A stretch of DNA of 64,000 nt from Catajapyx aquilonaris. Taxonomy: Eukaryota. The notes beneath the pieces were generated by a model. The model saw only the letters and a program-made list of their open reading frames with translations, was not told where the DNA came from and did not search any database. The stretch is taken from assembly GCA_000934665.2 (NCBI GenBank), contig KZ538142.1, positions 1 to 64,000 of the forward strand. The letters run 5' to 3'. The translations under genes were made by a program, and so were the position numbers. Below, in pieces: positions 4,401 through 62,444 of this stretch; position 1 is the stretch's first letter, and every line of letters begins with the position of its first letter.

Positions 4401-6659
4401 AAAAAAAGCTCTAAGAGATTCGAGCTCCCACAAGTGTTGTTGTTGATGTTTGTTGTTGTTGTTTATCATAACTCTGTTTTATAATATTATAATTTTTTTC
4501 ACTCATCCCAACAGCTGCACCGTAACGCTACCCAACCACTGATCACAGTCTACAACCGACATGCCAGCGTTATACTGTGGAAGAAATGGGTACACGATCA
4601 CACACAAGAGGTAAACTGGTGGAATAAAACCCCCTTTTGATTAATTAATTTTTTGTTTTCGTCTAACTACTTAAACCCTTTTTTATACGCACCTACTGTA
4701 TGGAGAATTGAGCACCTGAAGGATAGTAGCTTTTACATCACAAGTACACAAATTATTGAAAATCATATAACATGGATCGTTATTTTTTCTGTCACAGGAT
4801 TATTTTTAAAAGATCTCGGAGGTTTCTCTTTTCTTTTCCTGTGCAATTATATTATGCTTTTTAAAACCCTTTTTTATTGTTTAAATAATTTTTTTTAGTA
4901 ATCTTCGTTATTTTTTATAGCCTAATATTATTATAGGTATTGGATTCAAGAGGCTTCGTGACATTATTATGAATCTACTGGAAACTTTTTGGCAGTGTGG
5001 AATAACCTTGCATCTCACACATGCGAATACGAGAATTTTCCGTGACTTTTCTTCTCTTCCCATATATATAATTGTATATATATAATAATATTATGTTGTA
5101 TGTATTTTTTTATTTATTTTTTGGTTCACGGAGAAAAAACGTCCCCAGGCTTCGCTGCATGATGGAGTGATAAGAACGTGCCACAAGTCTAACGCGTGAG
5201 TTATTTTGAAAACGCCCAATTGTCTTTTTTTCCATCAAAGACAAAGGGCGGTAGTTCCAAGCGTAATCAGTAGTCACTATACAGTAGACAAGGTTGAAGG
5301 CGCCGTGCTCTTTTTTTTTTTTCATCCTTCGAAAATTGTCCATTTTTTTTCTTTTCTTTTCAAAGTTGTCCATGTTGTCGTAGTCGTTGCTGTTGTTGTT
5401 GTTGCTGCTTTTTTTCTTTTGTAAATATGTTGTTGCTGCTGCTGCTGGCTGCTGCGCTGTTTCCGCGCTGTTCTTCCATTAATTATTATTTTTTTGGTTG
5501 AAAAAACTGCATATGTCAAGAACACGGGTAAGGGGTTAAAAGGGATTTAAAAGGGTCAACAGGTCAAGAGGTGACGAGAGAGTGGTCAGCACGCGCGCTT
5601 TTTGCCGGATCCGGACCCCTTTGAGCAGAACGATTAGTTAAGTTATGAACACCCGTTTGGTCTCCTCACAGTTCAGTCTAACTTTTTTAGTTTTTTTTTT
5701 AACGAGATACACCTCCACGTGTGGGGGGGGCAGGGGGGTGGGGGGTGGGGGGGAAGAAAGAGAAGAGATAGATAGAAGAAGAAGAAGAAGAAGAAGAAGA
5801 GAAGTCAAAGTGTGATGGCCTATTGCCCCGTATTTTTGGTGGCCCCGTATTTCCCCCACTTTCAATTAAGCGTTTGCAGGGCTTCGACGGTCCCAAAAGA
5901 TTTGCTAACTCCCGTTAAGAAAGTTAAAGTCGGGAGCATAGCCAATAGGTCAGGGGTCATGGGTTAAAGTTAACAACAAACAAACAAAAAAATTGTTCCA
6001 GTGGGGGGTGTAAACTATGGAAGCTCTTGTAAAACGTTTTGCATGAAGGTGCGCTTCCACTGTCGAAGAACTGGGGCCAAATAGGTCACACTATTTTGGG
6101 AGGGGAGAGGTCAAGGGTTAACAACAACAGGTGAAGAAACAACCCCACACACCCCAAGGTCTGTGGTGTACGCACTGTGGGGGAGGGTGTCCCGAGTTTG
6201 GGGAAGGGGAGGGTGGGTCGAAGGTTTGGGGGGTTCCTTTTCCGCGCAAAAGGTCGTTTTTTTAAAATTATTAATTAATTAATTAATATTTTTTTTGCTA
6301 ACTTTCTTTTTTTGAAAACAGGGCACTGGGAAAAAGTTCCTGAGACGGCCGCGCCAGAGGGTGTGGGTAAATTTGTAAGTTTGATGGTTTGTCCATCAGT
6401 GGGTGGGGTTGAGGGCGTGGCTTCTGAGGCTGGTGCGCAGGAAGCGTGCGCAGGCCTTTCCGCGACGGAGGATGAGCTTGGCCAACTCCCGCTCCAGGCC
6501 ACGGTTCAGCAGGCTGAGTCCGGCTGCGATTGGCCCGTTGGCGACGGGGGGAGGAGGGGGTTGGAATGAGAACTGGGGAGGAGGGGGGAGGAGGGGAAAC
6601 GGAAGTTGGGGCGGAAGTGAGGGAGGGGGAGGAGGAGGGGGGGCCGGGACTCCCCACTG

Positions 6660-6829
6660 TCAGACGGCGTTGTCCTGGTACAACGGCAGAGAGTAGGCTG
6701 GCATGAAGGGCACCGGTGGCGGCGGCGGCGGAGGCGCCGGAGGACTCGTCTCGCGTTGCGACGACCGCTCAGACGCGGCTGGTACGCGGAAGGAACCAGG
6801 GTCATTAACGGGTGGCCGGAGTCGCAAGG
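6660..6829 (-). CDS. Glut1: Glut1 terminal exon, distal acceptor: ...[14 protein letters not shown]...[21 protein letters not shown]
   Basis: cctcctcag|CC TTG, phase 1, open to TGA at 6662-6660, GC-rich and coding-like. The C-terminus resembles the 'PLYQDNAL' ends I recall from insect Glut1 isoforms. Confidence 0.65.
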
Positions 6830-9800
6830 CTGAGGAGGTTCATGCAGCGGATTTCAGGCGGTGGATTCCCAGTGGAGCTCCAAAAAATGATGGGCTGATC
6901 TTTACTACGCGACGAAGTGTCGGGAGTCGGGGTGGGGCGCTTGGGGGTACTGTCGCTCTTTGTGGCCCCGTCAGGCACGGTCAGTCCATTAGCATGATAA
7001 TCTTAGTTAACTGCGGAGCTGGGAGCTTATTGTGGGTAACATCTATAATAATTACTCGAGAGAGGAAAGTCACCAAAGTCGGACCCCTAGCTTACTATAC
7101 GTCTAGGTGATGCAGACCAGCAATGAGTTCATAAAGACGGCCTGAAGTAATTAGATATAAAAATTAAGCCGATAATGATATAGCTACTTCTTACATAACT
7201 AATGAAAGAATCTTTTGACATCTAGAAATTAAGTGTAACTTTAACATTTAGGAAGTTATACAGGAAAAACCAATTGGGGGGGGGGGGGGTCCAACTGTGG
7301 TGACTTTCCCCCTACTTTCTGTGGTGCCGCAGGCCAACGAACGTTATTGTAGCTTTGCCACGGTGAGATGAACTACGGCGTGACATGCATTCGGTCCACC
7401 CGTTTGGACACGCTCTCTGGACTGCTCTATCCCTTCACCTCGACTCCCTCCACTTCGTCGCGTAGTGAAGATCTTCCAAAAGATGTGCCCAAAATGCCGA
7501 GTGACCACTAGACACACGCGGGACCACGCCCAAAAAGGTTGAGGAAAAACGTGAATGAGGCTAAGATGCAATATGGGTTGCCGTGTGTGTCTATGGGCAC
7601 TCTTGGTACTCCCACATTTTGGACTTATTTTGGTTAGGAATCCACTGCCGTCTCTCTGATTAATACACATGGGGCGAGGTTTTCCTTCTTCTAATAAAGC
7701 TTGACAGCAACAATTAATTACCACTGAATTAATTAAGTTAATACCATATCACATTGAAGCAGTACACACCCTTCATTTGTTACCAAGAGGATCATTATTG
7801 TTGCTAGCAGTTCAGCAGAAGAACGACATAACTCGCCCAATTTATACACTTTACACATCTCAATCGTGAAGAAACTTAAAACATAAATACGAAGGCCACT
7901 TAGGTCGAGAACGCAAACTGTGATTTTCTGTCTGAAGAGGACATATCGCGTTTTAAGTTAGGCAACGTTTCTGACTTCAATCCGTCCTTTTTTTATGATC
8001 GAGGTAAATGGCAATGTAAAGGTCTGAGTTGGAGTATATTCAGAGCAAGTTTAGTGCCTTTCAAACTTAAACCCTTCCCCGAGTTCTTTGCACTGTACGT
8101 ATAGCAAAGTTAGGAAACTGCCTTCAGGTCCTTTCACCTTGCTTTTGGAAGAGGTTAAGCACATCTTTAGATAATGATGCAATAACGCCAACTGCTGTAC
8201 GTGGCATTGTCAGTGTCTAAAAAATTGAGCAGGCAGAAGAGAGAGGAAGCTGCAGCTTCAATCTCTCAAAGGAGTCTCAATAAAACACGCGTCTTCCCGA
8301 AGAGTTCAAGCCTTCTCTTGCACACTGCCCTTCCTTTCAAATTAGATTTCCTCCCTTGAAATTGCGGCGATGTTGGGTGACTAAGGCCAAAATTGGCTCA
8401 AAAATCGAATTTTACGACCTGGAATATGCATCCACCTGATCTATACAGGGAGACGAGGTTGGAAGAAAAAGAGACGACGGACAACGAATGTGCCAAACAC
8501 TATTTCCAGACCCTGGCTGCGTGTTACGAAAACCTAATATCTCGATCATACCCTATTATTACATTTTTGGCAAGAATATCGGAAATTTGCTTGTAGTAAT
8601 CTGGTCCATTACAGGAGCGAAAAATGCAAACTACCTTGGACGGGAGAAGCACACAAATATTTGGCCAAAAATGTGCGACATAAGACAATGTAAGACAAGA
8701 ATAATCAATATAACGAAGCGGATCGTATTACATCGCCAAATTTTGTCGCAACAGAAACTGGAGAAGGTCAAAGAAAATTGTTATTTATAACACAGAATCT
8801 AGGACAGAGGAGCGATTCCCCCCCGGAGGAGATGAACTTACATGATTCCGGGTGAGGCTTTTCTTCCGTTATGAGTGCCGAGTGCTCAGGTTGCAGAGGT
8901 TGCCCTAGGGCATTGACACAGTTTAACATGCTCCTGAAAGAGGGGGGTTGTCATGACTGGTTGAGGCGTATGGATCCTCGGAGGCAAGAGAAGAAACCCT
9001 CATCACATTTTATCATCTCGATAATTATTATTTTTTTGATATGGACAAAAAAATGGCACGCACACAATGGTGGCCAATCTTTGTGTGCAGTAAAAAATAT
9101 TGTGGCGATAAATTACGTTAATTCTAATTTTAGGCCACGATCAAGTAAAATTGAAAAGTACACTCACCTCGGTTTATGCTTAAGTAATTACACCACCTTC
9201 CGCGGCCATTAGCAGTGATAATTTACTTTTATTTCTTAAAAGGTGCACTGGGACGTCAAACTGCACACAAAATCTCTACGTAATTAGTGTTTTTTTGAGA
9301 TCTTCGATTTTTTAAAAGCCTTATTTTGAGTTTTTCAAGGGGGGTCTTACAAGTCTGGCAGAAGATTATTTGTTTGTCCTCGGCAGCCACAATGCAACAA
9401 TAAAACTTTTTTTTCCGTCAGTCTTGAAAGATCAGCCGCCCAACTCGTGATTATAAAAGGGGGAGCTTTTTCGCAAGCAATATCATGCAAATACAAAAAC
9501 ACACAAAAGCTGTTCTCTCTCTCTCTCCCTCTCTTTCCCCTCTCTTTTTCTGTCTCTGTTCAGTTTTCTCAAGCAGTCTTCTCGTTTTCCTTCAGGCACA
9601 GTCAGCGAGCGCAGGTGGTTGTTCTATATACTGCCATAAGTAGTACTGGAAACAACGGCACATGGATCAAACATGAGAAGAAGAGAACGGAAAAGGCAAG
9701 ACTCTAACGGGCGTTGTCTCAAATTCATGCCTCTATCAAGGGGAAGGAAAACAAACAAACAAACAAACAAACAAACAAACAAACAAACAACACAAAATTT

Positions 9801-12800
9801 TTTGCAAACCAAAAAGTGATGCAATGCTTCTTTCTCCTTGCCTTTTCCAGCAGCTTCGTGCTAGCGAGGTCCTTGCAATGTGTGCGATTCAGGCAGGATT
9901 AAGTGGAAGCCATGCACAATTCATGCAATAAAAAAGTACAAAATAGAGGTCGGTCATACACTCAGCACATACAGATTGCTTCATAATGTATCAGACAAAT
10001 GGTAAGCTCACAGAGTCTTGTGCATACTTGGTAATTACCTAGATCTCTAGTTGGAATTAAACCATAAAGTGAAAGAATACAGTCTACAACACTTCCATCG
10101 TCTTAGACTGCCTGCTGCACCTCATTTATTTTATTTCAAATGAAAAAAAAACGCTGAAGAGATGCATATTTGCCAGAATATGTATTAATTCAACATACCC
10201 AATATTTTCCAGGATATTTGAAATTTTTTGACTATTACTTTAAATGTTCTAAAAATTTCAAGGGATATTTACGAGCCCATTATCTCATTACCGGATTCTC
10301 CGGTGCGGAGTTCACCTCTGAAGTTTGTCTGATTAACTATGAAACTTCGTGCGTTTTGCATGAGTGTCGGATGGGCGTAAAAGACCGATCCATTAATTAA
10401 TTGCAGGTGAATATATTATATATTTTTTTCATTTCAAAGTTTGGCAACCAATCTAGTGCTGTGATTTTGCGGAACCAGAAGGTGTACCTCCTCCTCCTCT
10501 TTTTATCCCCCATTTTTTGTGGTGTGCACAGAAGTGAAGTGTGTGTTGCAAACGATACGCGCAAACCGTGTTAAGTGAGAAAGTGAGCTCCATTACAAAA
10601 GAGGGAAACAAGATGTGTGGGTGTAAAATTCGTTCATTTTTAAAAAAGACATTTCTTGTGCCGGAAAAAAAGTGAGTGAAGGTTTTATAAAAATGAAATG
10701 CCTTGAGGCAAAAAGGACACCCATTTACCCGTACTCCACAGGGTGACGACCAATCAACAGTTCTGTGGCACTCTCTGAGGCATGGTTGTCAGCACGAATC
10801 GCGTCACCTCCATGTGTTCTCAAGTAATACCTGGTACCGGCAACGAAAGAAAAAAAACCAACATTCACCTTTTTGGGAGCTAAACTTCTGTATTATAAAA
10901 GAAGGTGTTTCTAACTAGTTCTACATGTCAAAAAAATAATGTTTAAGACTACATCAGCACTCTAGTAATGCTGATTTTTCTTCCTTACTTTCACCTGTCA
11001 TGATTGATGATTATTCGACAAGTTTTGTGTATCAAAAGAGAGAGAGGAGGTCATCGCCTGCCCTTTGGAGACAACGTAGAATTTACCCAACATTTCCCCT
11101 TGACATCAGCGGGTTCAGCTTATCAAAAATGCAGCCTCCCCTCTGTAAAATTTTCTCACACATCTGATGATCATACAATCAAACCCAACGCAATGTGTAA
11201 TCTACCACTACAATCAAGGGTGTGAAAGTCCAACCCTCATGCCAAGCATTGTCGACTCCTAACTCACAAAAAAATGTCTTCAAAACAAGAGGGTGGGTTT
11301 GTCACTACTTTTTTCAGTTTTTATTTTTAAAAATTGAGGGTGGAGAGAGTTTTTTTTAAAATTGAAAAGCGAGATGCAGGGAGATACGAACTCAGCTTAT
11401 TTTTTTTCTATGATATAGGTGACCCCCAGGACAATAGTAAGGCAGAAAGAAGGTTTTGTTACTCACCCATATAACCTACTGTCTTCTGCATTTCCTCTAT
11501 GGTTCATATGAAAGGACAAGGAGATGAGGCACATGTTTGTAGAATTTCTCATCCGTTTTTTTTTTTTTGGTTGCAAGTCTTGCAACTTGGTAAGGCTTTC
11601 TTACTCTTTATACGAGGTGGTCCAACAAGAATAAGCGTTAATTATAAAAATTAAGGTTATTTAACGGTTTTGCATTAAACAGATTGTTACATGTAGCTGT
11701 TGTAAGTTCAACTGCTGCTAGTAACCCAATATATTCTGCTTCCTAAAAAACTGCTAAATATGCAGAATTTTTATAAGCTTTTCTTTTTGGAATACCATGC
11801 AAATTTTTTTTAGCGATATATTTTTGTGCACTGAATTTTGTAAATAGTTAATTTATCATCGTATTTCGGTTCCGGATAATGAAAACAGGCAGAGTTAATT
11901 AACCAAAATAATGAATAATTAAATACTTCAAAGAGCACACAACGAGCCAATAACATTGCTGTACCAATATTTGCAATAAAAAAACATTTTACGAGTAAAA
12001 ATGCCATGCCATGCGGTCCATTAAAGCACAGAACGATATTGGGTAAAGCTGACTAAATTTTTTGGGCACTCATTTTCTGTAACATTTACAGCCAATTACA
12101 TGCTTATACACATCGGCCTGGAGCAAAAAGGTGTGACAATATTTATTTAAATTTTTTTAAAAAAAAGATTACCCAAATTGATGTTTATGAATTAATTTGG
12201 GGTTACAGTACCTTTCACTCCTTTCCCTAAACAGAGCCGCAATTTCTTCGAAGGTTTTGTTTTTCGTTTCTGGAACTTTCTTGTAGGTGAACACCCAGAA
12301 CACAGCCAAAAAGAAACTAAATGGAAGAAAGGTGTAGTTGTCCAGAGGTCCCTGCGGCATCAAGAGAAGAAAAAAAATATTTGTCAATCGATGTTACACG
12401 TGCACACTTTTTTGGATATATATTTTTTGCATTACCATCCCCCCCCTCCCCTCCCCATCCCCAGGACACAATTTCAAAATCGGGACCCCATGAATTTTAA
12501 TACGTGCCACGAATCGTTTCCAAATGGCGCCACTCACGAGAGAGAAAAATTGCCAATACATGACGGGATGGGAAAATGGAAGTGGAAGCATCGACTCAGG
12601 GCCTAAGGGTTAATGCAACGTCAACATTATTTCTCTCTGCTTCTTCTTTTTTTAAACCGTCGAGCAAATACAGACACCCAATTTCGGGTGAGTGTCCAGT
12701 CTTAAGTATTGTTGTTCATTACAAAATGCACTTACGTTTATTTGGTGCTGATCATGGTCAATTTTGGATGTATCTCCATAATATTAAGCAGAAAGTTTGT

Positions 12801-28500: not shown

Positions 28501-31500
28501 TTGACTTTTCGAGAGCCAAAAATTTGGTGTTACTATTTTAGCCCGGCAGGTTTACGTAAACTTTTTTTTTGCTATCCAGCGAAGGTTTGCGTTACGCTGC
28601 TGTGTTGGTGTCGCTTAACCCACTAATTTTTTTGCAAACTAGCAGCGGGTAATCACCGGATCATTTTTCCACTCTATCCATTGTCTAATTTGCCAACACA
28701 AAAAAGAGCCTTTCCCCCAAAAGAAGTATTCCCCCCAGCGACGCGTCAACGTTCATGTGCAAATTAACAAAAATGATTTAATTTCACGCCCATAATTTTT
28801 TTTGGGAGAGAGAGTATAGGGGGGGGGGGGGNNNNNNNNNNGCATGAGCTCTTTTGTGCTGGCAGCTTTTTCACTGCCATGAACCGTCGCATTAGTCTTA
28901 TCTTAGGCTAATTAGTTGTATGCCAGATGGCTTTTTATCGCTTTGGAAAATTGCTTGCCCTTCATTCTTCGGAATCATGCGAGTCTATTGTCGAACCTAA
29001 TTTTACTGTGTCGAGGCACACGATTTCCAGTGGCCCCCATTGCGAGAGGTATAAACAGCGTTTTGGGTTAATCTCCCCCCGCAATTAAGCGCTGTAATTA
29101 GGCTTAAGTCTAACGCTTTTCTGGTCAACATTCCCCTCTTTCGGGCTTGGGGGACCAGGCCCATTTCAGCCAGTCTGACGCACACACAAAAAAATTTGAA
29201 CAGGGTGTACCAATTCAGTACAGATTATTGCAGACTGCATATAAACCATCTTTGAGTATATACCGGCCTTGCAAATAATAAATAGGACAGGCGGATTTAT
29301 CTGCGTTCAGTAATGAAAAGAGAAAAGTACATATTTTCGCGTTCACAGGAAACGGGGCAGCCTCTTTCATCTCCATATATGATTATTTTTCCCAAGGTGC
29401 TGAAGAAGAGAGAATGCGAGAATGGATTTTTCTTGCAGGGAAGCAATCTGCTCTTGGGGTGGGATGCGCCGGATTGTCTGTCACATTTTCAACACCCAAC
29501 CCACCCCTTCCATTCCGGGGAAGACTCCTCTTTTAATATTCGGGCGTTCCTTTGCTTTTCTTACAGGAGTCAATAAATCACACCCAGGGAATATTACACG
29601 AGTGGCGCAAATCAAAGTTGAGCTGTGCCTGAGAGAAGCGCGTGTCCAAAGTCAAAGGCTTCTCTCTCCACCACCTTCCACAGGAAATTCCTCCTGGACT
29701 CCGGAGCTTTCCCTTTGAATTGTCCTCGGCCCAACTCTGCTCTCCGGAGCCTCTCCCTCCCTCCCTCTCCTTTGACAACAATTCTTCAGCGGCGACTTTT
29801 TAAGGTGCCGTCCGGAATCGATTCCCGGAGTCTGAGGATTCCCCGGATGGGAAAAGAAGACCTTGCAGACAGAGCCAAAACCTCTCAACACTCACAGCCG
29901 CAGAGAGAGAGAGAAGCTACAGTCCGGGCCAAAAACTCTCTCAGTACTCCGGATATGCAACTGTTGGCCCAAGCGTAGATCCGGGTATGTCGAATTACGT
30001 ATGCAAAATTATGGCCCACCGGGTTATCCAATAATACAATAAATATTGACAAAATACAGCCGAAGAGCTGTTATTACTTTCGAATATACTGAACAGTAAG
30101 TTGCACATTCAAACTGACTTTTTGTTGTTGCGATTCTTTTAATGATTTTATGTGATTAGTCAGTAGCCCTCGAAACCTTGTAATAAGCAAAAAAGAAATT
30201 GTACCAGTTCGGCAATGCAGGTACGGAAAAAAAAATTTGCTCCAGATACTGTGACCTTAAGACGTCTCCAAGACGCCACATCTTCCACCACGAAATAAAA
30301 GTCAGCTTCCATTCCCCGGATTTTACAGTTATGAGCTTCATTAAGGGGGCTTGACACTTCGCTCCTTTATATATATATATATATTAAAAAAACCTTCCGA
30401 GCCTCTGAGTAGGTCAAGGTCACACCCTAAAATTTTTCAAAACCTTTCCCCGCATTGCCGAGCAATATAATAACCGTGCTTTGTGCTGCCACCTATTCCT
30501 ATTGACACTACATTGTTCCACACTGCAACACAACGCCATGCAACAGAATTCGCTCTCTAGAGAATTCCAACACTGCCTCTTAATCTACATCTCACTCTAT
30601 TTTCTCTCCACACTAAAACCGTGTCCATGTCACATGCCTCATGTTATTCCCCGTCTCCAGCATGTTTAAAAAAAAAATTAGCATGCTTCATGGCATGGGG
30701 AATTTCGGGAGGGGAAATAGCATTGTTAATGTAGATTCGAAGTTCAGCAGCAGCATAATTCCAAACCACACGTTTTTGGTTTAAAAAGAGAGACCCTATA
30801 AGTACATGCAATGGGAGGAAAGCATGCGCGGAAAAGTCAGAGCCAACCAAGCTGTTCAAATATGCTTTCTTATTTTTTTAAATCTCCCAAAAATCCACAA
30901 AAATTCCTTTTTGGTGAGACTGGACTAAATATATAAAAAAATACACGTTCATTGTATAGTCTGCTGAGTTTCCAAATGCAAAGCGGCGCGCGCAGTTCCA
31001 ACAAACTTTTCCATTCCCAGCTAAAAACTTTCCAAAAAAAAAAGAGTACGGGGAAATAGAGCTAGTTTTCCTAACATAAAAATTGGAAAACTATTTTTTT
31101 CACACTCTCTCACACACTCGCACATATTACATATTTTTTGTTGCTCACTCTTGTCATCTGCCTGGAGTAACAAAGTAACGCCTAATGACAAAAGCAGACT
31201 CGGGAGCAGAGACCACACTAATTTTATTTCCCCGTACAATATGTCTGGCGCAAGCAAATTTTGTAGGAAGGTTGGTTTCATGTGATTTTGGGTGGGGAAA
31301 AGGTTTGGAAGGGACAATCATTTATATAGTTTTTTTTTTCAAAACAAATGCCCAGCCGCAATGATTTGTTCTCAAACCATAGGCAAAAAAGTAAGCATAT
31401 CTAGCGCGTTAGTACCGTCCAAGTTGCACTTTGTGCTCGCCATACATTTCATAGAAAGGGGGAGGAGCAGGGCCAAAAATTTAGGGGGGTCAGGGGGTCA

Positions 31501-50750: not shown

Positions 50751-53700
50751 TGTGAGTAAGATAGTAACATGAATTCCTGCTGCTAACCCGATACAAATGC
50801 AATAAATGACTCGTGTGAATCCATCCCGTCTTGAATGATTGAGTCGTATGTCGGTGGGGGTGTTGTAACGCAATGAATTGCGAATGTGTCCCACAGCATA
50901 TTGGCGGAATGGGGCCACCACCAAGGGCGCTATACAGATATGTATGCTGGGCCCCCCTCCCAGCATTTCACGGGTTAGAACCGCATTCGGACGGAAGTGA
51001 TGTTTCCTATGCCAAAACTTTCATTTTGTTTTTCTCTTCTCGACACCTCCCCTTGCCCTGTATAGAATGACTTTATTTCTCAATTTCGACGCAAGTCTCC
51101 TTCCAGTCAGACAATCCTATTTTTCCTTGGATTTTTACTACTCCTAAACTCTGGAGAGAAATGCGATGAACCATGTAATAAACGGTAGGGACATGACTTG
51201 CTTGCAGACCATAAGAAGTGCGACAGTCGGATGAAATGGGTGAGACAGAAGAGATGGAAAAGGGGGAGGGGATTACAATTATTCAATGCTCCTGATCTGA
51301 AAATGTTTTTTACACCCCCTGTGCGCACGTGTTTTTTTCTTTACACCTCCTCAATAAATAGGAACGAGCGCTCGTCTGAATCCTGATGAAAAACAACTGG
51401 TATGTAGGGAACAAAATGTGCAACGTTTAGAAGGCGACTCGGTTAAAGAGCACTTATCGCAGGACAATGTTGGACATCTATTGGCTGGCTCGCAACAAAC
51501 AATATCTCTGAAGCCTTTCACTGAAGGGTCACCCAATTACAACTGATGGCGCCTAGAGGATTTTAAAAGAAAGGAAAAAGGAGGCTGAACAAATAGAGAG
51601 CAAAAAAGAGGCGATCTCTGCACAAAACTTGCAGGTAGACCGTTCGGCCAACGATTGAAGAATTACAGGAGTCTGGCAGCGTGGAATATCGAGAGTCGAT
51701 AATTACATTCGCTCCACTGATGAATGGAGACGGAAGTTTTCCGACTGGAAGAGGAGGGTTGGAGGGGAGGGGGGGGGNNNGGGGGTGCTTCCAGTCGTTA
51801 TAAGATTCAATTTGTAAGGCAAATATCCTTACCTGTGAAAGGATTACCCCTGGAGTCAGTAGAAAAAGATGAGGAAAATGGAGAGAGAAAGAGAGTTACC
51901 AGTGGACCGAGTGCCGCTCACTACATTTTTTTTTCCTTCTCCTCAGCAAAAAGAGAAGCCCTTTTTTGCATCATTGGATCAGAGCCGGAACCAACCCTGT
52001 TTCCACACTGTCAATATTTACCAGGGATGTGAGCACTCTTTCAAAGTTAATAACGCTTTAGTTATCTAACCCGGCTCTGTGCTTGGCTTTGGAAGAGCGC
52101 AGGTTGTTTGCATAAAGTATGTGCAGTCCGGGAGGATTGAACCCATCGAACAAAAGCTGTACAGGTACGCACAATAATGGAGCAGTTACCTCAGCATTCT
52201 GTTAATTAGCCAGGATGCCTCGGAAATTTAATGGCTTGGGTCTGTGCCTCTGTTTGTACGCGGTGAATCATCAGTAGCGTGCAAAGAGGGAGGATGCGCC
52301 ATCTATTAAAGAGATTTCGTAAGCTTCGTCAAAAAAAAACTCAAAAAATCAAAATTCTGGGCATTAGACTCAAAAAGGTGCGGTTTTCGCCATTTTTCTC
52401 AATCAGCGGCACGTACCACATAGGTGTGCCAAGTTTCAGCTCTCTCAGAGGTGTGGAAGTGGGTGAGGTAGCCGAGACATACAAACAAACACAGAAACTT
52501 TCTGATTTATGTAGACAGTATAAGATGTACGCTGTATAGTACTAGCCTTGTAATTCTCTGAACCAGCGCAATTTCGTATCAAAGTGTGCCCCATATGTTA
52601 TATAAAATTGCTTCTCGTAAACTAATTCAATGATACTTAATGGCCCTTATCACCCTCCCCCAAGTGTCACCCTTTTTTTTATTCTACGCCTATACACACG
52701 CCCCCATTGATTGTGGAGCAAAAGGTGTATTTCTGAGAAGTCGTAAGTATTTTTATCCGCCCGGTAATAAACTGAGAAGTTGGCATGAAACACCTTCGTG
52801 CCTCTTTCTTTTCTTTCTCTCNNNNNNNNNNNNNNNCCCCCCCCCCCCCCCAACAGAGATCAAAAACAACGCGAATCAGAAAAAAAATTCCCATTAAAAT
52901 AAGTGTTGCATGTCGACAGGCCTTTCACGGTAGGCCTATTGCGGCATATAGGCCTCACAGTAGTGACTTCCTCATATTTTTTGTTGCCTCTCGGTTATTT
53001 CACATCGACATAAAAAAAACTGACTGCAGGTGAGCACGTCACATGAAGCAATCTATCAACGCCAGTCGAGGTCGAGAAGAGAGAGAGAGAATATAATGCA
53101 TATAATATATAATATTGCGCCAAAAATCCGCGACACACATCGATGGGGTTACAAACCGAGAGGCACACTGCTTTAACACGCGATCAAAATCAAATTCCTG
53201 CATAAACGTCAGCGACAGCCAGGTTAGCACACTTTATGGTTTATGCCCGGGTGATGACACACAAGTCCCTCGTAATTTGGTTTGACGCCGGAGCCAAACC
53301 GTGTTCGCCATCAGCCAATAAAACCCTCCGGATTTTTGGGGGTCATCAACTGGGTCACACGCAAGTCCATATTCGACTTGGCTTATTCTTACAAACTTGG
53401 CAACACTGTTCACGTAAATGTCTCAGATAGATGGCGCACTACTGATGACTCACCGCGGACAAACCGAGTCACAGCTGGAACGTGTAAGCGACTCTTTCGT
53501 ACAATAATTTTAAAGTGGGGATGAATATACAGTACTAAGTCGACTTCTTCATCCAGGGGCCAGAAGCTTCTTGCAGAATTTAGAGGCTTCCTTTTTTTCT
53601 ATCTATCTCAGGTCTCCCCCCCCCCCCAGACAGACAGACCGCACCTTGCATTAACGTGAATATATATATAGAAAGAAGAAGAAGAAGTGCTCTTCACGCC

Positions 53701-60058: not shown

Positions 60059-62444
60059 GAAGTCTTGATGAGCGCTACCGAGTGCTCATCCACACTCGCG
60101 CAGCTCCATTGTTTTGACGATAACATTGCAAGAATTACTTCCCAGAAGCCAAATTTACACCCGTAGCCTCTGGAGGTTAGTTCCGGAGCTTTGGCAACGT
60201 CGCAAACGTTGGCCATATTGTTTTCCCCAAAGTCGTAGCGTTGGAAATAAATGCCGCGCAGAACACCCACTATAGAGAGCTTACCACATACCACTGATAA
60301 TTCCAACCGTGCAAGCTGCGCGAACGGTGGTGCGCACTCGGGTGGGTTCGTTAAAAATGCATCTCTATCAGTTGATAAATCGCGATTTCTGACCAGGCGA
60401 CACATATCCGGGTCAGTTAAACGTTTCTGACACATCACCCTGTAATATACAAATGGCACTCTTATTCATACATGAGACTCTGGTTTTTGTTTGCATGCTT
60501 TCCCCATAAATTCTACCCACTTGTTTACGAACATTTGTTACCTATGTCACCGTTAATCTCGCACTCATTTCTCCAACCTATTTTTTTGTTATATATATTT
60601 TTGAAAAAGCCTAACTTTTCACCTCACACCCTTCTTTTCCTTCCAAGTCACCTAAAAGTTTTTTGTTTTGTTTTTTTGGAGGGGAGGGTCCTTTGCGTGA
60701 CCTGGCTCCAACCCTTTTTCATCATTCTCCGCGCATGTGGATCGGATTTTGATTGGAGGCCTCCCAGATTTATGTCTCCTCGTATATTTTGGAAAGCGCG
60801 TAAATAAAGAAAAGGAGACCCCAACCAGCGCTCTTTTCTTTTATATGGAGTAGCAGTCAGGAGAAAGTGAGAGGGACAAAAAAAATATGTGTATTGCTTC
60901 AACTGGAACACAATTTGGGCGAGGCGGCCTACTGAAGCACCAGAAACGAGATTTGATTGAGTCAGATGTGAAAAATTTCGGTGGATGCGTTAATCCACAA
61001 TCTGCCACGTACTGCTAGGCCTACTAAAAGTTGCGTTTTACGACTAAAGTTGGTCAATATTATTGATGTTGGTTAAAATAAAAGCGCTGTTGCTATTTTT
61101 AAAATAACTGCGACATTGCTATTTTAACAGTAACAAACGATATTGCTTTTTAAAAATAAACAGCCACATTAGCATTTTAAAATAACTGTGATCATGCTAT
61201 TGAAGGATAACAATGATTATAATATTTTAACTGATAGTGTTAGCCTATTTAAAATAAGTAAAAAACGCAATTTGACAAATAACAGCGATGTGGTTATTTT
61301 TTTAAAAAACAGCAGTGATCTATCAGACATGGGTGGACAACAGGTACGCTTTGATTAAGAGTGATTTACGACTAATATCTGAGAGCTATCTGTAGCAGTT
61401 ATTCTCCTATTTTTATACCTGTCAGATGACTTTGTAGTCATTACTCTCCGATTCACATAGGTCCGAACCTTTTGGGATATACATACGCCCGAGGGGATGA
61501 GTCGCCGCAAAATTAGTCCGGCCGGTATCGCTGGATTTCTCGAAGAAACATGCTGGTAATACATGTAATTCGAATGCCTAATTATCATGGGCAGCCCATG
61601 CGGTAGTCGCAGCGCTACACAAACTGCACATTTTGTTGTGAGGAGCGGTAGGTCCCGGCAAGGGGGGCACTACTTTCTGGCGTATGGATATCCAAAAAGG
61701 TTCAGACTTATGCGAATCGGAGAGTAGTAAGTTACGCTAACAAAGCTGCAATGTTGATGTCATTTAACACTTATTTTGACATATTGCGTACTTACTTCTA
61801 AGGTACATTCATTATAATAAATGCAGCGAAAATAATGACGTCAGTGTCAGTGAGAAAATAGCTGCTATGCGATATTTGACATTGCGCAGCATTATATAGG
61901 TCAAGCCGCATAAAAAAGAAGCTCCTGCAGAAGAAGAGGAGGGGGAAAAAAGAAACAATGGGTGGAGAAAATTCCGCAACTGGCAAAGTAAGCATCCCAA
62001 AATAGCGTTGAAGAGTTGAGACTTTTTGATGTGGAAGAAGAGAAGAAGAAGGAAGAAAAAAAAGGAAAGGGGGAAGGGTAGGGGAGTGGAGGGAGGGAAA
62101 TAGCCCCCGCCTGGCTGCATTGGCTTCTTGGCTCGATCCGCAGCTGTCAGGAAGCGAAGTTGGGGCCAACTGACAGACGAAAAGGATGTGCCCTCCTGCA
62201 TTTTTCGGACGCTTGTCTGCACCCAACTTGGGCCCTTCTGGAAGGCCATGGCGCCACCCCACCCCCCACCCACAACTTGGAAACATATCCAGGGAGAATC
62301 CCCATCACCACGAGTGTAATCTGCAATGTGCACCAAGCTTATACTTGGTGCAGTTGAAGCACCTCTCACTTGAAAGTCAATTGGCATCACTGCCACTCAC
62401 GCGAATCATATCAGCCGATCGTGATTGATGGTGTGACAAATCCG

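Follow-up and report, generated by a model that had tools for sequence, protein, structure and literature searches.

Nested inverted repeats in the last Glut1 intron of Catajapyx aquilonaris look more like mobile-element remains than a purpose-built splicing switch

The Glut1 gene and its C-terminal exons

The stretch of DNA analysed here (hereafter the window) comprises 64,000 nucleotides of Catajapyx aquilonaris (GenBank assembly GCA_000934665.2, contig KZ538142.1, positions 1 to 64,000 of the forward strand). It carries an arthropod Glut1 gene on its minus strand and, in the last intron of this gene, a segment bounded by a long inverted repeat (hereafter the unit), which looks more like the remains of a mobile element than a splicing switch built for the purpose. 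In a protein database without a same-species entry, 818 of 904 candidate proteins reached E ≤ 1e-10; the best matches are insect Glut1 proteins with 77-87% identity over one exon, and the summed identity to ant isoforms is around 78%. Exon mapping by tblastn, as well as all counts of C-terminal endings, was taken over 120 listed homologues. The Glut1 exons map from 32754 down to 12208, and a further one, the penultimate coding exon, is situated at 8842-8934 (Table 1).

The proline-rich C-terminal tail of arthropod Glut1 is characterised by the order A[AG]SE[RH]SS, poly-proline and N-x-[GA]-V after the exon reading SMLNCVNAL…PHP[DE]S. The same order is found in the distal tail of the window (PAASERSS…poly-Pro…DNAV and stop), which aligns motif for motif with the insect Glut1 tail AGSERSS…PPPPLPPPRFPNSGV and its stop. 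Since the distal frame aligns in this way, the distal proline-rich terminal exon is, judged from the alignment, a real, ancient and conserved C-terminus of Glut1. Word-based searches with the tail peptide alone yielded 24 candidates among longer proteins, none of them scoring, and no candidate among proteins of similar length.

Two distal acceptors, 6829 and 6778, are in frame and compatible with phase 1. The latter (ttccttccgcgtaccag/CC, the slash marking the splice junction here and below) leads to PES/SASERSS… and lies nearer to the insect junction; with pyrimidines at 15 of the 20 upstream nucleotides, against 14 for 6829, it looks at least as good an acceptor. An earlier note on this DNA had assigned the proline-rich tail to the acceptor at 6829 and had added two proximal phase-1 acceptors, 7010 and 7042, each with a short tail of its own. 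The translations proved correct (FN and stop from 7010, YVTHNK…MD and stop from 7042, the proline-rich tail ending PLYQDNAV and stop from 6829), and the last of these tails is the one that matches the conserved insect tail. The pyrimidine counts are 13 for 7042 and 12 for 7010, and no AATAAA or ATTAAA poly(A) signal is present on the gene strand from 8900 to 5118. At best, the candidate proximal sites would serve as alternative acceptors within a single extended terminal exon.

Alternative C-termini after the penultimate exon are common in insects, in which this exon can continue into PDS/L and stop, PDS/CK…, which is a read-through of the GTAAG donor, and PDS/FVFAAGSERSS…PPPPLPPPRFPNSGV and stop. 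The ending PDSL is found in 9 of the 120 homologues and N[SAN][GA]V in 28. Annotated isoforms differ, moreover, in the frame used for the insect terminal exon, which gives either …AGSERSS…PPPPLPPPRFPNSGV and stop or …CVCSWIRALFRRSRS…LSEQRCLTTGNSSS and stop; the ending NSSS occurs in 10 of the 120 homologues. In this second frame, the window sequence reaches a stop codon after 3-8 codons.

Upstream of the penultimate exon, a mini-exon (11466-11510) that looks unannotated is the counterpart of the insect cassette RSSLRDSRLYG or RGSLRDSRLYG and joins 8934 in phase 2. Upstream of the 8934 acceptor (8954-8980, minus strand), the intron reads RGSIRLNQS followed by a stop, a weak look-alike of the RGSLRDSRL mini-exon that may be a degenerate duplicate or due to chance.

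Table 1. Features of the 3' part of Glut1 and of the inverted-repeat unit in its last intron (positions of the window).
Feature	Position	Strand	Evidence and remarks
Upstream mini-exon	11466-11510	minus	36 insect C-terminal queries match, best E = 2.6e-4; in-frame splice to 8934
Penultimate Glut1 coding exon	8842-8934	minus	tblastn of insect Glut1, 39 proteins match, best E = 4e-7; donor T/GTAAGT, phase 1
Right copy of flanking direct repeat (TCCAAAAGATG)	7475-7485		1 nt outside outer arm
Outer stem, far arm (5' arm in pre-mRNA)	7436-7473		Repeat search, blastn, folding
Inner concentric stem, right arm	7286-7309		G14 tract 7276-7289 precedes; repeat search, folding
Inner concentric stem, left arm	7064-7087		22/24 pair; blastn E = 8e-4 (whole window); centre comparison; folding
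Proximal candidate acceptors of the earlier note	7010-7042	minus	In 129-nt internal loop; 12 and 13 of 20 pyrimidines
Outer stem, arm closest to terminal exon (3' arm in minus-strand pre-mRNA)	6897-6934		34/38 pair; unique in window; pair probability around 1.0 except at 4 mismatches
Left copy of flanking direct repeat (TCCAAAAAATG), candidate target-site duplication	6879-6889		7 nt outside outer arm
Conserved terminal exon, coding part including stop	6660-6829	minus	Acceptor 6829 or 6778; alignment with insect tails AGSERSS…PPPPLPPPRFPNSGV

Two concentric inverted repeats and their predicted fold

The unit is 577 bp long (6897-7473) and consists of two discrete, symmetrically placed inverted-repeat pairs that flank an AT-rich core. 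The arms of the outer pair, recovered by a repeat search, measure 38 nt each, are complementary at 34 of 38 positions (89%) and enclose 501 nt; their perfect core, ACTACGCGACGAAGTG, comprises 16 nt. In a blastn search of 6860-7510 against the window, the pair obtained E = 1e-8. A 23-nt arm pattern, with up to three mismatches allowed, matches within the window at both arms only, and two matches were reached in none of 100 shuffles; in metagenome contigs, the arm pattern has 0 matches. On the minus (gene) strand, the outer stem exhibits two single mismatches, A·C (6903/7467) and C·A (6930/7440), as well as a tandem one, G·A/A·G (6920-6921/7449-7450), whereas on the plus strand both transition mismatches become G·U wobbles.

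Concentric within the outer stem lies a second stem of 24 bp with 198 nt between its arms (Table 1). The outer pair is centred at 7185 and the inner one at 7186.5, and the spacers between the pairs measure 129 and 126 nt. These spacers are dissimilar to each other, and neither they nor the central 198 nt exhibit reverse-complement similarity (z = -1.4 and -0.6 compared to 500 shuffles). A decayed long palindrome or foldback is ruled out by the dissimilar spacers, and an arrangement of repeated binding sites as in inverted repeat/direct repeat (IR/DR) ends is ruled out as well, the outer and inner arms being mutually dissimilar.

Concerning base composition, the GC content of the core is 0.23-0.38 at 7150-7299 vs 0.56-0.73 in the left flank. 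Only stop-to-stop frames cross the unit; no protein homologue maps within it, and the insect Glut1 queries have no significant tblastn match there. A scan of 5500-9500 against Rfam gave a single match with E = 0.39, which is far under the gathering score and situated outside the unit.

The pre-mRNA was folded by partition function from 6650 to 8950 (2301 nt), i.e., over the whole last intron. Both stems form with a pair probability of around 1.0 at every complementary position. In separate folds of the two strands, the minus (gene) strand reaches -217.3 kcal/mol vs -236 for the plus strand, in both cases with z around -6 over 20 shuffles; the plus strand folds more stably because both transitions are G·U wobbles there. 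With A·C on the gene strand and G·U on the opposite one, these transitions do not make the transcribed strand the better-pairing one. The loop of the outer stem holds 36 AG dinucleotides, of which 7010 and 7042 are two, and both of these proximal candidates fall into the 129-nt internal loop between inner and outer stems. The stems end 67 nt before acceptor 6829 and 118 nt before 6778, and the sequence preceding the distal acceptors is not part of them.

The sequence claims of the earlier note, namely an inverted repeat with a 16-bp perfect core in otherwise unique sequence, two A-C mismatches (including that at 6903) and a tandem G-A in the minus-strand pre-mRNA, thus stand, each arm occurring once in the window. 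The note had further described a long-range duplex that loops out 7010 and 7042 and leaves 6829 about 67 nt beyond it. The two stems indeed dominate the predicted fold and the positions agree. With the proximal acceptors in an internal loop and the distal region outside the stems, the looping-out geometry that it proposed appears physically plausible on the folding model.

When translated along the gene strand, the far arm (7457-7474) yields RSSLRD and the near arm (6923-6937) PHPDS followed by RHFVA and a stop, i.e., motifs of the insect Glut1 C-terminus. A derivation of the arms from Glut1 coding sequence was considered and this likeness judged to be due to chance: tblastn gives E = 0.6-1.6, the window holds around 9 other chance 6-mer and 153 5-mer matches, and the true RG…DSRLYG mini-exon is the one at 11466-11510. 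Judged from sequence, the presence of Glut1-like motifs in two complementary arms would be an odd coincidence.

Origin and possible effect of the unit

The unit is bracketed by a direct repeat with 10/11 identity (TCCAAAAAATG and TCCAAAAGATG, Table 1). A flank match of this quality was reached by 68 of 20,000 shuffled flank pairs and by 13 of 1683 equally spaced control pairs of the window (p around 0.003-0.008). The right copy is situated 1 nt from the outer arm and the left copy 7 nt from it, and no exact duplication adjoins both arms. Because the left copy stands 7 nt off its arm, the direct repeat is suggestive of a target-site duplication, yet not a clean one.

Miniature inverted-repeat transposable elements (MITEs) and internally deleted DNA transposons are short non-coding units with long terminal inverted repeats, and terminal as well as subterminal inverted repeats are known from the Drosophila P element and other DNA transposons. 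The unit of the window resembles them in several respects: it is small and without coding capacity (577 bp), terminal inverted repeats are found at both ends (38-nt arms, 34/38), a second pair lies equidistant from the ends with unrelated sequence between the pairs, the core is AT-rich, and a direct repeat flanks the whole. Nested concentric pairs with unrelated spacers would fit an element whose left and right ends differ from each other. From this symmetric layout, the direct repeat, the small size and the AT-rich non-coding core, together with the presence of other MITE-like units in the window, the lineage-specific hairpin insertions in arthropod Glut1 (see below) and the mismatches unfavourable on the gene strand, we infer with moderate confidence that the segment of 577-585 bp is the relic of a small non-autonomous, MITE-like DNA transposon whose transcript folds.

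Under this reading, the element would have inserted into the last Glut1 intron, 67-118 nt upstream of the conserved proline-rich terminal exon, and the 38-bp terminal and 24-bp subterminal inverted repeats would be features of element ends, not stems built for the host gene. As the element is transcribed within the pre-mRNA, a hairpin of two stems, one from each repeat pair, is predicted, and it should be very stable. This hairpin would pinch off around 500 nt of intron with many cryptic AGs, in effect shortening the intron, and the segment could serve as a double-stranded-RNA substrate. Any effect of such a hairpin on splicing is putative and may be nil.

Several points weigh against an origin from a transposon. 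Apart from poly-G runs, blastn finds no further copy of any part of 6860-7510 in the 64-kb window, and no transposon family can be named for the unit, nor a transposase assigned. The direct repeat is imperfect and fails to adjoin the left arm by 7 nt, and a duplication of 11 bp is an unusual length for most superfamilies of DNA transposons. The stems (89-92%) are much better preserved than might be expected without maintenance; a young insertion would explain this equally well. The position, beside a terminal exon that is alternatively spliced in the insect orthologues, would suit a splice-regulating stem, and a transposon origin would be compatible with an acquired function.

Glut1 introns of other arthropods provide a comparison. 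Fourteen arthropod Glut1 loci (L001 and following) were retrieved from metagenome contigs via the conserved penultimate exon, and their C-terminal exons were mapped; the terminal exon is situated at 12703-12848 in L002, at 6850-6957 in L006 and at 9976-10083 in L007. Five of the 14 loci were searched for repeats, since L001 and L003 duplicate L002, L006 duplicates L007, and the others contain little downstream sequence. A long inverted repeat other than microsatellite is found downstream of the penultimate exon in three of the five, with arms of 40 nt at 90% in L002, 262 nt at 95% in L007 and 55 nt at 87% in L012; L009 and L010 possess TA-microsatellite palindromes only.

The L007 repeat is a 510-bp foldback (8655-9164) in a termite-type Glut1 intron, which L006 (5522-6045), 99.9% identical to L007, also contains. 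It is cleanly missing from L005, L008, L009, L010 and L011 (95-96% identical), where the empty site reads GATGTACATAAAC; a duplication of TGTACA borders the inserted foldback on either side. Judged from the repeats in L002, L007 and L012 and the empty sites of the L007 foldback, insertions that form hairpins are frequent in this part of arthropod Glut1, lineage-specific and demonstrably transposon-like. Like the unit of the window, the foldback can form a hairpin and occupies the intron that follows the penultimate exon, here in an orthologous gene; it differs in its contiguous arms of 262 nt (95%), its clean TGTACA duplication and the empty sites in five related loci. No nucleotide similarity beyond poly-G exists between 6500-7600 of the window and the 14 loci.

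The alternative that survives best, although unlikely, is the one that builds on the switch proposed by the earlier note, from a short to a long proline-rich tail and possibly coupled to editing: whatever their origin, the stems would be functional and maintained, would loop out the proximal acceptors, would bring the 8842 donor near the distal acceptor and would thereby favour the isoform ending in DNAV. Its precedent is the Nmnat gene of Drosophila, for which the main text of PMC2724269 (Raker et al. 2009; echoed in PMC4674693) describes boxes around a proximal acceptor without which the distal acceptor is not used, giving different C-termini, and proves the mechanism by disrupting and compensatory mutations. 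The geometry of that intron 4/exon 5 stem is the same, with boxes hundreds of nucleotides apart around the proximal acceptor, and the predicted fold of the window contains what characterizes the class of these authors, boxes of 9 nt or more within a single pre-mRNA whose complementarity allows a stable stem. The position is exactly right and the duplexes are unusually strong, both stems pairing with a probability of around 1.0 in the 2.3-kb fold, and z is around -6 compared to shuffles. The in-frame AGs are enclosed, and the branch-point region of the distal acceptors (67 nt off for 6829, 118 nt for 6778) is free. The distal tail is conserved, insect Glut1 shows at least three kinds of ending after the penultimate exon, and on the gene strand the tandem mismatch is of the stabilising G·A/A·G type.

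These arguments are countered by the fact that 7010 and 7042 are only two among the 36 AGs of the loop, with pyrimidine tracts weaker than that of 6778, and that the gene strand between 8900 and 5118 contains no poly(A) signal with which a proximal terminal exon of its own could end. Furthermore, it is just the gene strand on which the duplex suffers from both transitions, the model assigns no function to the symmetry of terminal and subterminal repeats or to the direct repeat around them, and where other arthropods have hairpins in this part of the intron, these are insertions specific to a lineage. The Nmnat boxes were detected by conservation across 12 Drosophila genomes and proven by compensatory mutations; the predicted stems of the window are longer (38 and 24 bp) and lack a poly(A) signal for a proximal terminal exon. 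Glut1 is not mentioned in the main text of PMC2724269, a statement that does not cover its supplement with the 202 conserved box pairs, and a literature search for long-range structure in Glut1 found none. Whether transposon relic or splice stem, the unit belongs to a known kind.

Quite unlikely is a local rearrangement, in which a small inverted duplication or a template switch would have created both pairs in place and without function. The single-copy state of each arm in the window agrees with it, as does the failure to find a clean target-site duplication adjoining both arms or to recognise a transposon family. A single inverted duplication, however, predicts similarity over the length of the arms and not two short islands whose equally long spacers are unrelated, and it offers no explanation for the direct repeat on the flanks.

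The two leading ideas might also be combined, although this seems decidedly doubtful: a transposon-derived two-stem clamp could have been co-opted as an RNA switch in this arthropod lineage. In the folded state, the cryptic acceptors that it brought along would be sequestered and the 8842 donor joined to the ancient proline-rich exon; if it unfolds or both A·C positions are edited, truncated short-tail transporters would result. In mammals, the C-terminal tail region of this transporter controls recycling, according to PMC5695913. The terminal residues of the proline-rich exon resemble, on sequence, a PDZ-type ending. Such a co-opted clamp, if true, would represent a new lineage-specific tuning of Glut1 trafficking via the C-terminus.

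It is highly improbable that the main activity of the unit, rather than splice choice, is that of a double-stranded-RNA source whose 38-bp and 24-bp duplexes undergo ADAR editing or dicing: the duplex is predicted to be of considerable length and stability and contains two A·C mismatches on the gene strand, a context which ADAR favours, but editing would not recode the protein because the conserved gene model places both arms within the intron, and the Rfam match in 5500-9500 is limited to that outside the unit. A docking-site/selector system as in Dscam1, where long-range intronic pairing decides splice choice in pancrustaceans (PMC12962786), was rejected: there, one docking site faces many competing selectors in a cluster of mutually exclusive exons, whereas each arm of the window has a single partner (with up to three mismatches) and tblastn exon mapping reveals no tandem exon cluster.

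If the stems did steer the choice of terminal acceptor, a young, transposon-born mechanism of the Nmnat type would shape the C-terminus of an important sugar transporter. If the unit is an ordinary intronic relic, which seems more likely, the value of the analysis is practical, since it fixes the 3' gene model with the exons at 11466-11510 and 8842-8934 and the terminal exon from 6829 or 6778, and shows that long intronic inverted repeats beside alternatively spliced exons need checks of copy number and empty sites before they are read as regulatory.

Further repeats of the window

Two MITE-like units of around 285 bp each are situated elsewhere in the window, at 61442-61726 and 42451-42737, with terminal inverted repeats of 51 nt (88%) and 54 nt (81%), respectively. 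The former, readable as CTCTCCG…CGGAGAG, is bordered by TA at either end in the style of Tc1/mariner-Stowaway elements. A large imperfect inverted repeat at 37924-38348, in which (GGT/GCT)n faces (CAG/CAA)n, is probably triplet-repeat coding or low-complexity sequence. The 64 kb also contain ten poly-G/poly-C tracts of 12-16 nt (at 2612, 7276, 18971, 20300, 24865, 28819, 41162, 49124, 52837 and 53616), several of which adjoin runs of N (18989, 28832-28841, 41175-41176, 52822-52836), and such tracts therefore seem to break the assembly.

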